Sequence record: FJ539133.1
Source of the DNA: Qubevirus faecium
Length of the DNA: 4,243 bases
Strand: one strand, 5' to 3'
Part shown: positions 1 to 4,243 of the stretch, in pieces
Numbering within the stretch: position 1 is the first letter of the stretch
Layout: each line of letters starts with the position of its first letter
Made by a program: the position numbers and the translations under genes
Notes under the pieces: model-generated
The model's database searches: none
Told to the model about the DNA's origin: nothing
The model's input: the letters and a program-made list of their open reading frames with translations, nothing else

Positions 1-5
1 GGGGT

Positions 6-24
6 AGGCCCCATAAAGGGGCCT
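6..24 (+). promoter_or_regulatory. 5'-terminal stem-loop following the GGGG start (replication cis-element of the RNA genome)
   Basis: AGGCCCC (6-12) is exactly complementary to GGGGCCT (18-24), giving a 7-bp stem with a 5-nt loop ATAAA. The window starts with GGGG, as levivirus genomes do. Qbeta has an analogous G/C-rich 5' hairpin. Confidence 0.6.
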
Positions 25-41
25 GCCTTCAACGCACTACA

Positions 42-47
42 GAGGAG
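42..47 (+). promoter_or_regulatory. Shine-Dalgarno sequence of the maturation gene
   Basis: GAGGAG lies 5 nt upstream of ATG 53. An in-frame TAA at 14-16 rules out an upstream extension. Confidence 0.6.
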
Positions 48-52
48 AATCT

Positions 53-1378
53 ATGCCAACCCTTCCGAGAGGTCTTCGCTTCGGATCGAACGGCGAGGTC
101 GTTAACGACTTCAACGCGCTCTGGTTTCCAGAGCGCGAAACCTTCGACTCCGGGCTTGGATCCTACGAACTCACTGGTTACGTAAGTAATCAGCCGGGAT
201 ACGAGACACGCATGCGTAATCCTAGCATGCATTGTATTCGTACACCGCACAGAAGTACGGTGCCAGTTAACCATCTTGGTTACAGGCCTGTTACGACTGT
301 TGAGTACACTCCTAATGGGACTTTCATCCGCCTTGACGGGGATGTGAAGTTTTCCGGTGGAGCGGTCAGTGGGTCGCTCAAACTTAGCAACTATGTTGTT
401 AACTTGGCGGCCCAGGGTGGCTTCGATTACCAGTCGGTAATCGGTCCAAGGTTCTCTGCGCAATTCGCTGCGTTCAGTACCAAGTATGGTACGTTACTAG
501 GCGAAGGGAGAGAAACACTTAGTTATCTTCTCCTGCTGTTTCGCAGGGTGCGTGAAGGGATCCGCGCTGTAAAGCACGGTGATCTCAAGCGCCTCAGGAA
601 TCTGATACGTACGTTCGAGCCGCGCTCCGTTCCCGGAAAGCGGCAAAGAGCATCGTTCTCAGAAGCCTATCGCGACAGAACTGCCAATGGCAGTTGGAAA
701 GACAGTAGTGCGAGTGACCTGTGGTTAGAATTCCGTTACGGGTTGATGCCGTTATTTTACGACATCCAGTCCGTAATGGAAGACTTCATGCGTGTCCATA
801 AGAAGATCGCGAAACTTCAGCGATTCTCTGCAGGACACGGCAAGCTAGTTGAGGTAAAGGGTAAGTTCTTCCCTGATCCTCACTTCGCTCTTGAGGTCAC
901 CGCAGTGTTGCAGCGGCGTCATCGTTGGGGGGTGATATACCAGGATACTGGTTCGTTCGCCACCTTCAATAATGGTCGGCTAATCCCGGTGAGGGATTGG
1001 CAGACAGCGGCTTTAGCACTCCTTAATCCCGCCGAGACTGCTTGGGAGTTAACTCCTTACAGTTTCGTCGCGGATTGGTTTGTTAATGTAGGTGATATGC
1101 TCGAGCAGATCGGCCAGCTCTATCGCCATGTCGACGTTGTCGACGGGTTTGATAGAAAGGACGTGAAGCTCAAGAGCGTGTCGGTACGTGTCATAAGAGA
1201 CGACGCGACGCACACGTCTTTCAGCTTAGCTGGAGCGGTGTTGTTGCATAGTTTCTATTCGCGCGTGCATACCGTTGCGTTTCCGCAAATCTCACCACAA
1301 CTCGATACTGAGATACGTAGTGTTAAACACGTAATCGACAGTATTGCCCTTTTAACTCAGCGTTTTAAAAGACGCTAA
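53..1378 (+). CDS. A2: Maturation (A2) protein; in Qbeta-like phages also the lysis effector
   Basis: 441-aa ORF, ATG start, TAA stop, first gene after the 5' UTR. The translation (MPTLPRGLRFG..., LWLEFRYGLMPLFYDI, AWELTPYSFVADWFVNVGDMLEQIGQLY, VVDGFDRKDVKLKS, LLTQRFKRR) closely matches the Qbeta A2 protein as I recall it. Confidence 0.93.
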   Translation: MPTLPRGLRFGSNGEVVNDFNALWFPERETFDSGLGSYELTGYVSNQPGYETRMRNPSMHCIRTPHRSTVPVNHLGYRPVTTVEYTPNGTFIRLDGDVKFSGGAVSGSLKLSNYVVNLAAQGGFDYQSVIGPRFSAQFAAFSTKYGTLLGEGRETLSYLLLLFRRVREGIRAVKHGDLKRLRNLIRTFEPRSVPGKRQRASFSEAYRDRTANGSWKDSSASDLWLEFRYGLMPLFYDIQSVMEDFMRVHKKIAKLQRFSAGHGKLVEVKGKFFPDPHFALEVTAVLQRRHRWGVIYQDTGSFATFNNGRLIPVRDWQTAALALLNPAETAWELTPYSFVADWFVNVGDMLEQIGQLYRHVDVVDGFDRKDVKLKSVSVRVIRDDATHTSFSLAGAVLLHSFYSRVHTVAFPQISPQLDTEIRSVKHVIDSIALLTQRFKRR

Positions 1379-1396
1379 TTTTGGGTCAATTCGATC

Positions 1397-1795
1397 ATGG
1401 CAAAATTGAATAAGGTTACGCTTACCGGTATTGGTAAGGCTGGAGATCAGACTTTAACTCTTACACCGCGTGGGGTAAATCCCACTAACGGCGTGGCGTC
1501 GCTATCTGAAGCTGGAGCTGTTCCGGCGTTGGAGAAGCGAGTAACTGTGTCAGTTGCTCAGCCATCTCGTAACCGTAAGAACTATAAGATCCAGATTAAA
1601 CTCCAGAACCCGACTGCATGCACGAAGGACGCATGCGACCCTTCTGTGACGCGTTCCGCGTTCGCGGACCTAACGCTGTCGTTCACGTCGTATTCTACTG
1701 ACGTTGAACGTGCGCTAGTTCGCACTGAACTGGCAGCTCTGTTGAAGGATGATTTGATTGTCGATGCTATTGACAATCTTAATCCTGCATACTGA
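1397..1795 (+). CDS. cp: Major coat protein
   Basis: 132-aa ORF separated from A2 by an 18-nt intergenic region (TTTTGGGTCAATTCGATC) that resembles the Qbeta coat initiation region. The translation (AKLNKVTLTGIGKAGDQTLTLTPRGVNPTNGVASLSEAGAVPALEKRVTVSV...NPTACTKDACDPSVTR...LNPAY) is Qbeta/SP-like, including the two Cys of the disulfide-forming loop. It ends at TGA 1793-1795. Confidence 0.95.
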   Translation: MAKLNKVTLTGIGKAGDQTLTLTPRGVNPTNGVASLSEAGAVPALEKRVTVSVAQPSRNRKNYKIQIKLQNPTACTKDACDPSVTRSAFADLTLSFTSYSTDVERALVRTELAALLKDDLIVDAIDNLNPAY

Positions 1796-2389
1796 GCAGC
1801 GTTACTGGCAGCCTCGCCGGGTGGCGGGAATAATCCCAACCCTGGCGTCCCGGATAGTCCGAACGTCAAGCCGCCTGGCGGTACAGGCACCTATCGGTGC
1901 CCGTTCGCCTGCTACCGCCGTGGTGAACTCATCACGGAGGCTAAGGACGGAGCTTGTGCGCTTTATGCGCTTGGCAGTGAGGCCATAGTTGAGTTCGATT
2001 ACGCTCTTGAGGATTTCCTCGGGAACGTGTTCTGGCGCAACTGGGACGGTCGCTTATCGACATACGATATCGACACTCACCGTCGTTGTCGCGGTAACGG
2101 GTACGTTGACCTAGACGCAACCATGATGCAGTCAGACGCTTATGTATTGTCTGGCGCTTATGATGTTGTCAAGATGCAACCACCCAGTATCTTCGACTCC
2201 CCTAGGTACTACCTCCATCTAATGGATGGTATCTATGTGGACTTAGCCGAGGTAACGGCATACCATTCTTACGGAATGGTCATTGGCTTCTGGACAGACT
2301 CTAAGAGCCCGCAGCTGCCAACCGACTTTACGCGTTTTAACGGGCGTAACTGCCCCGTACAGACCGTAATCGTCATACCCTCACTTTAA
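1397..2389 (+). CDS. A1: Minor capsid protein A1 (coat read-through protein, about 330 aa)
   Basis: Same frame as coat. No stop between 1796 and 2386, and no ATG/GTG/TTG in the first 77 codons of the extension, so independent initiation is unlikely. The extension begins with a Gly/Pro/Asn-rich linker (SPGGGNNPNPGVPDSPNVKPPGGTG) followed by GTYRCPF...CRGNGYVDLDAT...AYHSYGMVIGFW...CPVQTVIVIP, which parallels the Qbeta A1 extension (PGTGKYTCPF...CRGNGYIDLDAT...AYHADGVIVGFW...CPIQAVIVVP). The total of about 330 aa compares with 329 aa for Qbeta A1. Confidence 0.85.
1793..1795 (+). promoter_or_regulatory. Leaky UGA stop codon of the coat gene (translational read-through site)
   Basis: The coat frame stays open for 197 further codons after TGA, to TAA 2387-2389. 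The local context is TAC TGA GCA. In Qbeta the coat UGA is occasionally read as Trp to make A1. Confidence 0.8.
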
Positions 2390-2397
2390 GCAACTTA

Positions 2398-2403
2398 AAG
2401 GAG
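2398..2403 (+). promoter_or_regulatory. Shine-Dalgarno sequence of the replicase gene
   Basis: AAGGAG lies 5 nt upstream of ATG 2409. Confidence 0.65.
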
Positions 2404-2404
2404 A

Positions 2405-2424
2405 TAGCATGTCTAAGACAGCTA
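2405..2424 (+). promoter_or_regulatory. Replicase translational operator hairpin (coat-protein binding site spanning the replicase start codon)
   Basis: TAGCATGTCTAAGACAGCTA folds as an 8-bp stem (2405-2408 and 2410-2413 paired with 2417-2424), with a bulged A at 2409 (the A of the AUG) and a 3-nt loop UAA (2414-2416). The geometry and sequence match the Qbeta operator AUGCAUGUCUAAGACAGCAU. Confidence 0.7.
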
Positions 2425-4139
2425 GTCACAAGAAGAAAATTACTCAAGCATTGAGTAAGGTCGACATCAACTTTGAAGACGACATCCATATGTCTATTGC
2501 CAATGACCTCTTTGAGGCCTACGGCATTGCACCTCTTGCGTCGGCGGAGCAGTGTATCAGCACTCCGTTCCCTGACACTTCAATGGACGCTGATGCATTT
2601 CGCATCCATTACCTGCGTTCAGAGATCCTTAGCAAGTTCAGTGCGCACCCTCTCGGTATTGATACCGAAGCGGCCGCCTGGGAAAAGTTCCTGGCTGCCG
2701 AGGAGGGTTGTAGACAAACCAACGAACGTCTCACTAAGGTTAAGTACCATGATAATTCCATTTTGTCATGGGGCGAGCGTGTTATTCACACTGCTCGTCG
2801 AAAAATACTTAAACTGATCGGTGAGACTGTCCCGCTGGGGGATGTGGCGTTGCGCGCCCGATTTTCGGGAGGCGCTACGACCTCGGTTAACCGTTTACAC
2901 GGTCACCCGTCGTGGAAGCATGCCTGTCCGCAGGATGTAACCAAACGTGCACTGAAATACCTAATGGCCTATAAAAAGGCCTGTGGTGACGTCGTTGATT
3001 TACGCGTCAATGAGGTGCGCACTTCAAATAAAGCAGTCACTGTTCCAAAGAACAGCAAAACTGATCGTTGCATTGCCATCGAGCCCGGCTGGAATATGTT
3101 TTTCCAGTTAGGCGTAGGTGCTGTGCTCCGCGATAGGTTGCGCCTTTGGCAGATTGATCTTAATGACCAATCTGTTAATCAGCGCCTCGCACGCGATGCG
3201 TCGCAGTTGGACCATTTGGCCACTGTCGACTTATCAGCAGCAAGTGATTCGATAAGCTTACGGCTTGTTGAATTGCTAATGCCGCCTGCTTGGTTTGATC
3301 TCCTGACCGATCTCCGATCGGACCAGGGTGTCCTGCCAGATGGGCGTGTCGTTACTTACGAGAAAATATCCTCCATGGGTAATGGCTACACTTTCGAGCT
3401 GGAGTCGCTAATCTTTGCGGCCCTAGCCAGGAGTGTGTGCGAGTTGTTGGACCTTGACCAGTCAACCGTCAGCGTGTACGGTGATGATATAATCATCGAC
3501 TCACGTGCCGCTGATGTCCTGATGGCGGTTTTTGAGTATGTTGGGTTCACGCCTAACAGAAAGAAGACTTTCATTAAGGGCCCCTTTAGAGAGTCGTGCG
3601 GTAAGCACTGGCACTCCGGGGTTGACGTAACGCCCTTTTACATACGCCGCCCAATCCGTTGCCTAGCCGACATGATACTTGTTTTAAACAGTATATATCG
3701 GTGGGGCACGATTGACGGGGTGTGGGATCCTAGAGTACTGCCTGTGTACCAGAAGTACGTGAAGCTGCTACCAAGAGATTGGCGGCGCAACACTATACCT
3801 GATGGTTACGGTGACGGTGCTCTCGTCGGATTGGCCACGACTAACCCATTCGTTATCGTCCGGAATTATTCCAGATGGTATCCTGTGTTGGTTGAGGTCC
3901 AGAGGGATGCTAAGCGTCACGAGTTTGGCAGTTACTTATATGCCTTGCTGCGTGACCGCGAAGCACGTTACAATCCCTTCCTGCGTACTGCAGATGGGAG
4001 TGGGTTTGATGAAACACCGCTAGCTACTAGCCTTCGTCGCAAGACAGGTCGGTACAAAGTGGCGTGGATTCAGGACAGTGCCTTCATCCGGCCCCCTTAT
4101 TTTATTAAGGGAATTCCCGAGGTGAAGCTTGCGAGCTAG
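2409..4139 (+). CDS. rep: RNA-dependent RNA polymerase (replicase beta subunit)
   Basis: 576-aa ORF, ATG start, TAG stop. Contains the D-x4-D motif A (DLSAASD, 3228..3248) and the catalytic YGDD (3477..3488). The N-terminus MSKTASHKKKITQALSKVDINFEDD and much of the sequence are Qbeta/SP replicase-like; the length equals what I recall for the SP-group replicase. Confidence 0.95.
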   Translation: MSKTASHKKKITQALSKVDINFEDDIHMSIANDLFEAYGIAPLASAEQCISTPFPDTSMDADAFRIHYLRSEILSKFSAHPLGIDTEAAAWEKFLAAEEGCRQTNERLTKVKYHDNSILSWGERVIHTARRKILKLIGETVPLGDVALRARFSGGATTSVNRLHGHPSWKHACPQDVTKRALKYLMAYKKACGDVVDLRVNEVRTSNKAVTVPKNSKTDRCIAIEPGWNMFFQLGVGAVLRDRLRLWQIDLNDQSVNQRLARDASQLDHLATVDLSAASDSISLRLVELLMPPAWFDLLTDLRSDQGVLPDGRVVTYEKISSMGNGYTFELESLIFAALARSVCELLDLDQSTVSVYGDDIIIDSRAADVLMAVFEYVGFTPNRKKTFIKGPFRESCGKHWHSGVDVTPFYIRRPIRCLADMILVLNSIYRWGTIDGVWDPRVLPVYQKYVKLLPRDWRRNTIPDGYGDGALVGLATTNPFVIVRNYSRWYPVLVEVQRDAKRHEFGSYLYALLRDREARYNPFLRTADGSGFDETPLATSLRRKTGRYKVAWIQDSAFIRPPYFIKGIPEVKLAS

Positions 4140-4178
4140 ACACTAGCTCGTAATGGGAAGGGGCCTCTTTGAGGTCCC

Positions 4179-4198
4179 GGAAGGAGAAAGAAAGAAAA
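4179..4198 (+). other. 20-nt all-purine A-rich tract in the 3' UTR (candidate Hfq/host-factor binding site)
   Basis: GGAAGGAGAAAGAAAGAAAA contains no pyrimidine across 20 nt. Hfq, the host factor of Qbeta replicase, binds A-rich/ARN-type tracts near the 3' end of Qbeta RNA. Confidence 0.4.
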
Positions 4199-4213
4199 CT
4201 CCCTCCTGCGAGG

Positions 4214-4243
4214 GTGGGCTCTGCTTTGCCCACTCTCCTCCCA
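4214..4243 (+). promoter_or_regulatory. 3'-terminal hairpin plus single-stranded CUCUCCUCCCA tail (replicase initiation site)
   Basis: GTGGGC (4214-4219) is complementary to GCCCAC (4228-4233), with an 8-nt loop TCTGCTTT. The genome ends in ...CTCCTCCCA, the canonical levivirus 3' end; the final A is non-templated in Qbeta. Confidence 0.65.

Follow-up and report, generated by a model that had tools for sequence, protein, structure and literature searches.

We are close to certain that the DNA of sequence record FJ539133.1, analysed here over its whole length of 4,243 nucleotides (nt; hereafter the window), is the full-length complementary DNA (cDNA) of a plus-strand, single-stranded RNA (ssRNA), F-specific coliphage, belonging to Qubevirus faecium, genogroup IV, and within it to the sub-lineage of strain NL95. 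The strain is almost certainly HB-P24 of Enterobacteria phage FI, for which FJ539133 is the deposit, and which reportedly goes back to Friedman et al. 2009 (J Virol 83:11233; cited in PMC3499819). The genome is already known and deposited, and is not a new lineage.

The maturation protein A2, the coat protein and the replicase of the window, which together comprise 1149 amino acids (aa), are exact matches to the GenBank entries ACT66753.1, ACT66754.1 and ACT66756.1, all assigned to Qubevirus faecium. The proteins of the related strains HB-P22, BR1 and BR8 are deposited under ACT66749-52, ACT66757-60 and ACT66761-64, respectively, and the records of these three strains name E. coli as the host. 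A single-stranded, plus-sense virion RNA and entry by way of F pili, both proper to Qubevirus, would be expected of the window phage, which is represented by a cDNA sequence. The block ACT66753-56 lies between those of FJ539132 (HB-P22) and FJ539134 (BR1) and must therefore be that of FJ539133. The group IV strains of a published isolate set are SP, FI, BR1, BR8, HB-P22, HB-P24 and NL95 (PMC6963950), of which HB-P24 alone is left for this record.

We compared the window by megablast with 50,697 phage records derived from INPHARED, a collection that included FJ539132, FJ539134 and FJ539135, with FJ539133 itself absent. The nearest whole-length relative was NL95, at 90.8% nt identity, followed by HB-P22 (83.8%), by SP, BR1 and BR8 (about 80%) and by FI (78%), whereas the DNA of Qbeta matched in short patches only. 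Gene order was identical in the window and in all of the whole-length group IV matches. An earlier note on this DNA had placed it, from lengths and coat sequence, with the group IV (SP/FI/NL95-like) phages, and had left the question of a known isolate or a new lineage to a BLAST comparison with Fiersviridae genomes; the placement is borne out by these matches, and the exact protein matches given above answer the question against a new lineage. The identities of the individual proteins to those of the window (the minor capsid protein A1 being the read-through product of the coat gene) were as follows, with nucleotide accessions in brackets; those of BR1 and BR8 are FJ539134 and FJ539135.

NL95 (AF059243): A2 87.6%, coat 93.2%, A1 92.7%, replicase 96.2%
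HB-P22 (FJ539132): A2 83.4%, coat 93.9%, A1 78.5%, replicase 90.5%
SP (X07489): A2 76.3%, coat 90.9%, A1 76.1%, replicase 86.6%
FI (EF068134): A2 78.2%, coat 87.9%, A1 76.8%, replicase 81.8%
Qbeta: A2 46.2%, coat 77.4%, A1 55.4%, replicase 56.4%

It is very improbable that the window represents a Qubevirus lineage or species not described before, although some of the searches, taken by themselves, would suit that reading. No record in the phage collection exceeded 90.8% nt identity to the window, nothing in IMG/VR was nearer to it than FI, and the two Logan contigs that we examined were HB-P22-like, at about 91% identity to that strain compared with about 83% to the window itself. The ceiling of 90.8%, however, is explained by the absence of FJ539133 from the collection searched, and the exact matches of three proteins to existing Qubevirus faecium entries stand directly against novelty. 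The criterion of the International Committee on Taxonomy of Viruses for a species is about 80% aa identity of the RNA-dependent RNA polymerase. The replicase of the window is far nearer to that of NL95 (96.2%), and to those of the other species members HB-P22, SP and FI (at least 81.8%), than to that of Qbeta, placing the window within Qubevirus faecium. When clustered at 90% identity, the coat and replicase proteins also fell together with several members from Logan (an assembly of the SRA), up to near full length.

Gene content and genome ends

Coding sequence takes up 4050 of the 4243 nt (95.5%), all on one strand, in the order maturation, coat and replicase that is characteristic of the approximately 4.2-kb genomes of Qubevirus (formerly Allolevivirus, Fiersviridae). 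This is the Qbeta-like organisation that the earlier note had described, with three canonical genes and a read-through product filling nearly the whole window, and both Pfam families and solved Qbeta structures support it. The coding features are listed below, with the Pfam family and the structures matched.

53-1378, plus strand: maturation protein A2, 441 aa (Phage_mat-A, PF03863, 2.3e-80; Qbeta A2 structures 5vlz and 5mnt, 1e-115)
1397-1795, plus strand: major coat protein, 132 aa, with a leaky UGA (1793-1795) as its stop codon (Levi_coat, PF01819, 4.2e-56; Qbeta structures 5kip and 1qbe, 1e-62)
1796-2389, plus strand: read-through extension, which with 1397-1795 forms the minor capsid protein A1, 330 aa with the UGA taken as tryptophan (Read-through, PF16814, 1.3e-39; Qbeta A1 domain structure 3rlc, 9e-43)
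2409-4139, plus strand: replicase beta subunit, the RNA-dependent RNA polymerase, 576 aa (RNA_replicase_B, PF03431, 8.1e-240; Qbeta structures 3mmp and 3agp, 1e-204)

Similarity to the A2, coat and replicase proteins of leviviruses, the lack of which the earlier note had named as the finding that would overturn its view, is thus present in all three families (PF03863, PF01819 and PF03431), and every solved structure matching a window protein comes from Qbeta. The replicase carries a YGDD motif at aa 356-359, and A2, by homology with its Qbeta counterpart, is predicted to be a pilus-binding, RNA-binding and lysis protein. In each of the four coding segments, third codon positions held an excess of the differences from the relatives, as in A2, where the differences from NL95 were distributed 41/22/113 over the three codon positions. 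In the read-through extension, the 197 codons that follow the coat UGA, up to a UAA at 2387-2389, are open in the window and in all relatives, and the differences from NL95 (8/7/27) again show the third-position excess, indicating that the extension is translated and under selection. The context of the stop codon, UAC UGA GCA GCG, is constant across group IV, and A1 would be produced, as in Qbeta, by occasional read-through of the coat UGA, presumably at a comparable efficiency.

At the 3' end of the A2 gene, small indels separate the strains, with A2 lengths of 441, 442 and 440 aa. A hairpin, AGCGUUUUAAAAGACGCU, lies at 1359-1376, directly before the UAA (1376-1378) that ends A2, within the region homologous to the replicase S-site described below, and was scored as terminator-like.

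No further reading frame was found to be conserved on either strand, within the scope stated below. The longest open stretch on the minus strand comprised 154 codons (32-493), within the expectation from codon shuffling (mean 134, standard deviation 27, p = 0.20), and was not conserved, with 100 codons remaining open in NL95 (32-331) and the longest stretches of the other strains lying elsewhere. A minus-strand open reading frame (ORF) at 29-463, with 144 aa and a TTG start, was considered as a hidden gene and rejected as a chance ORF, being within the same null (p = 0.20) and broken or displaced in the relatives. Leviviruses such as MS2 possess an overlapping lysis gene at a site that corresponds to 2473-2817 of the window. 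A plus-strand ORF of 114 aa does lie there, in the +1 frame of the replicase, but was rejected as a lysis gene of this type, as it contains two to three stops in every group IV relative and five in Qbeta. Among plus-strand ORFs of at least 40 codons in alternative frames, none was open in all of NL95, HB-P22, BR1, SP and FI. At this scope (ORFs of at least 40 codons) there is no separate lysis gene, and lysis would fall to A2, in keeping with the rule in alloleviviruses that A2 also causes lysis (PMC3561173).

At the DNA level, we counted five promoter-like sites against 3.5 +/- 2.1 expected from shuffled sequences, and eight terminator-like sites against 4.6 +/- 1.9. Neither is a meaningful excess, and the slight surplus of terminator-like hairpins is compatible with an RNA of strong secondary structure. 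These results are consistent with the further claims of the earlier note, that the minus strand is non-coding and that the genome has no DNA promoters or terminators, claims which draw on absence of evidence together with levivirus biology.

The window begins with GGGGUAGGCCCC and ends with CUCUCCUCCCA, and thus runs 4243 nt from GGGG to CCCA. Aligned end to end, positions 1-4243 correspond to 2-4248 of NL95, 1-4241 of HB-P22 and 2-4276 of SP. Because the alignment with these complete genomes runs from the first base to the last, the ends of the window are those accepted as genome ends in this group. We identified the following terminal elements by folding, and for the 3' domain also by alignment folding.

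1-52, plus strand: 5' untranslated leader, with the GGGG start, the 5'-terminal hairpin and the A2 Shine-Dalgarno sequence GGAG at 44-47
4140-4243, plus strand: 3' untranslated domain, consisting of four elements and ending in CCCA
4154-4158 with 4239-4243, plus strand: closing helix of the 3' domain, found in the fold of the whole 3' untranslated region (UTR), in which the last five bases are paired
4160-4167 with 4171-4178, plus strand: hairpin of the 3' domain
4183-4186 with 4199-4202, plus strand: stem of the A-rich-loop hairpin, with the loop at 4187-4198
4210-4219 with 4228-4237, plus strand: terminal hairpin U1, with the loop UCUGCUUU at 4220-4227

The 5' hairpin (2-12 with 18-28) has 11 base pairs (bp) and the loop AUAAA, with a folding energy of -23.7 kcal/mol (z -3.5; 1 of 200 shuffled sequences as stable), and is kept in NL95, HB-P22, BR8 and Qbeta. 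The U1 hairpin has 10 bp and -20.1 kcal/mol (z -4.3; none of 200 shuffles as stable), and is followed by the single-stranded tail CUCCCA; the fold of the whole 3' UTR reaches -48.3 kcal/mol (z -3.5). In an alignment of seven genomes, 30 pairs of the 3' domain were kept, six of them with compensatory changes. The window therefore shows the terminal features of Qubevirus described in PMC3561173, with a 5' GGG, a 3' CCCA, a 3' domain closed by a helix, and a U1 loop that contains UGCUU and has an upstream complement.

In the SP record X07489 (1-54), a run of G residues, GGGGGUAGGGGGGAUAAAGGGGG, disrupts the 5' hairpin that is kept in all other strains, which is probably a sequencing error.

We consider it unlikely that the window falls short of a terminus-to-terminus genome, whether through terminal bases lost or gained, or through ends derived from primers rather than from virion RNA. 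NL95 and SP both begin with GGGGG, one G more than the window, which aligns from their second base, and the FI record EF068134, although entitled a complete genome, lacks, relative to the others, about 36 nt of 5' sequence and 14 nt of 3' sequence. Moreover, direct determination and primer origin of the extreme terminal bases are indistinguishable by sequence, a point that tells against completeness. Set against this, HB-P22, BR1, BR8 and Qbeta share exactly the GGGG and CCCA ends of the window in the multiple alignment, so that four G residues stand at the 5' end of the window and of these four genomes, and five at that of NL95 and SP, and the terminal hairpins are intact, as is the closing helix made from the last five bases. 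In the alignment, the termini match those of NL95, SP and Qbeta, the conserved structures at both ends are present, and the window contains no flanking sequence beyond the termini, all of which agrees with the earlier description of a complete genome.

RNA elements and proposed working of the phage

We identified elements of translational control and of replicase recruitment within the coding region, as follows.

2398-2427, plus strand: ribosome-binding site of the replicase (AAGGAG at 2398-2403) and coat operator hairpin, which folds
1299-1413, plus strand: region around the coat start homologous to the S-site for replicase/S1, projected by homology only from the "replicase binding region s" of SP X07489
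2596-2923, plus strand: region homologous to the internal replicase/S1 M-site, projected by homology only from the "replicase binding region m" of SP
3030-3036, plus strand: upstream pseudoknot partner AAAGCAG, complementary to CUGCUUU (4221-4227) of the U1 loop and 1191 nt upstream of it

The operator hairpin (2405-2424) consists of 8 bp, formed by 2405-2408 and 2410-2413 with 2417-2424, and of the loop UAA at 2414-2416; its bulged A, at 2409, is the A of the replicase AUG. Across nine genomes, two pairs of the stem show compensatory changes (UA to AU and AU to UA), while the loop-proximal part is invariant. The alignment gives the Qbeta operator the same geometry, that is, a stem of 8 bp, a 3-nt loop and a bulged A. 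In ssRNA phages, the coat protein represses replicase synthesis at the operator hairpin (PMC3561173), and a similar repression may be expected in the window phage from the biology of Qbeta. The spacer between the extension and the replicase (2390-2408, 19 nt) is 100% identical to those of HB-P22, SP, BR1 and BR8. In contrast, the spacer of NL95 (2395-2413), though NL95 is otherwise the nearest relative, differs from that of the window at four positions, and the NL95 operator stem carries a compensating change, from UAGC...GCUA to AAGC...GCUU.

A variant of this site was seen in one of the HB-P22-like Logan contigs, SRR17509918_1643 (2325-2364), in which the replicase start is GUG and the operator bulge is G instead of A. 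Either natural variation or an error in sequencing could account for this.

The Qbeta S-site at 1247-1346 maps to positions 1299-1399 of the window. Similarly, the Qbeta M-site at 2545-2867 (PMC4176380) maps to 2596-2918. In Qbeta, the U1 loop pairs as a pseudoknot with a sequence lying some 1200 nt upstream, an interaction required for replication and verified by experiment only in that phage (PMC3561173). Both partners of this pseudoknot are invariant in eight of the eight genomes compared, with the Qbeta equivalents at 4195-4201 and 2973-2979, and the pseudoknot would, on the Qbeta model, have the same role in the window strain.

Taken together with Qbeta biology, these features suggest how the phage might work. 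The genomic RNA would itself serve as messenger RNA, from which A2 (53-1378) would be made as the single-copy protein of maturation, attachment and lysis, and the coat protein (1397-1795) as the material of the capsid, with A1, the minor capsid protein encoded as far as 2389, supplied by occasional read-through of the coat UGA. Copying of the RNA would fall to the replicase beta subunit (2409-4139), joined with the host proteins EF-Tu, EF-Ts and S1. Control would be exerted via RNA structure: coat dimers, bound to the operator hairpin in which the replicase AUG lies, would turn off replicase translation, the replicase would be recruited at the internal S and M sites, and the 3' domain, with the pseudoknot between 4221-4227 and 3030-3036, would deliver the buried 3' end to the enzyme.

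Some results weigh against parts of this reading of the window. The label HB-P24, a bird isolate, and nucleotide-level identity to the record are inferred, the label by elimination. The 330-aa A1, with tryptophan at the UGA, had no exact match in the protein collection, which is probably an indexing matter but gives no positive support. As both pseudoknot partners are invariant, their covariation support is nil, and the upstream partner at 3030-3036 is also under coding constraint. Finally, an Rfam scan at E values up to 1 matched no family; as no curated family covers these elements, the scan is neutral on them.

A discordant history in the read-through extension

The read-through extension has a different pattern of kinship from the genes that flank it. 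Compared with HB-P22, the window is about 88% identical in the coat gene and about 65-70% identical over 1800-2200, before identity recovers to 86-89% in the replicase. In the extension, the window and NL95 are only about 70% identical in nucleotides to every other group IV strain, FI included (66-69% in amino acids for the window against HB-P22, SP, BR1, BR8 and FI), whereas per-segment matrices put HB-P22 at 82% identity with SP and the BR strains. For A2, coat and replicase, by contrast, HB-P22 clusters with the window and NL95. Counts of quartet sites for the window, HB-P22, SP and FI were 66/34/29 in the replicase, favouring the pairing of the window with HB-P22, and 9/21/33 in the extension, favouring that of HB-P22 with SP; the two distributions differ (chi-square p = 1.3e-6), and the switch points lie at the borders of the extension.

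Judged from sequence, the discordant tree suggests either an old exchange of a module or rapid divergence specific to one lineage. It is possible, although we regard it as somewhat doubtful, that the extension of NL95 and HB-P24 is a module with a separate history, obtained through RNA recombination from a group IV-like phage that has yet to be sampled, or else that HB-P22 took up an SP-like extension. Under such an exchange, one breakpoint would fall at about 1750-1825, by the coat UGA, and the other at about 2350-2425, by the replicase start.

The difference between the extension tree and those of the flanking genes would also be expected of a chimera formed from two group IV phages in assembly or in the laboratory, an explanation to which we give next to no credence. 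NL95 is the nearest strain in nearly every 200-nt stretch (82-96.5%), with HB-P22 ahead by a slight margin in just two of them (at 1601 and 3901), and no segment is near-identical to another strain. Moreover, NL95, which was sequenced independently elsewhere, has the same odd extension, so that the mosaic belongs to the lineage and did not arise in the assembly of this record.

Recombination has so far been argued for strains of Levivirus (PMC3499819). Were the discordance a product of recombination, the few existing indications of modular exchange in ssRNA phages would gain another, and alloleviviruses would be seen to swap, as a cassette, a domain that is thought to act in infection.

Comparison with NL95, other group IV strains and Qbeta

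The earlier note correctly recognised a textbook type of genome, of which this specific example is already in GenBank. The window can serve as a group IV Qubevirus genome with full annotation, and adds one sequence in support of the conservation, across species, of the Qbeta operator hairpin, the 3' domain and the pseudoknot partners.

Its closest counterpart, NL95, has the same gene order, with coordinates offset by 0-5 nt and a 3' UTR that is 95% identical, and differs by about 390 substitutions and five gapped positions. The A2 protein of NL95 has 442 aa, compared with 441 in the window, through an indel near the 3' end of the A2 gene. NL95 begins with GGGGG and has a 5' hairpin loop AUAA, where the window has GGGG and AUAAA. 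The two phages share the divergent read-through extension (92.9% nt identity), by which they stand apart from every other strain of group IV.

HB-P22, SP, BR1, BR8 and FI belong to the same species as the window and have the same architecture, terminal sequences and operator hairpin, but are 77-84% identical to it in nucleotides overall. They also differ in the lengths of individual proteins, with A2 having 450 aa in SP, BR1 and BR8, and the replicase having 586 aa in FI, as opposed to 441 and 576 aa, respectively, in the window.

Qbeta (Qubevirus durum, genogroup III), the prototype that has been characterised by experiment, is more distant. It shares with the window the four products, the UGA read-through, the operator with a 3-nt loop and a bulged A, the 3' tail CUGCUUUGCCC...CUCCUCCCA and the invariant pseudoknot partners. 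Its genome, however, is only 57% identical in a global nucleotide alignment, with 56% identity in the replicase, 46% in A2, 77% in the coat protein and 40% in the read-through domain, and its 3' UTR contains one helix more than that of the window (alignment; PMC3561173).

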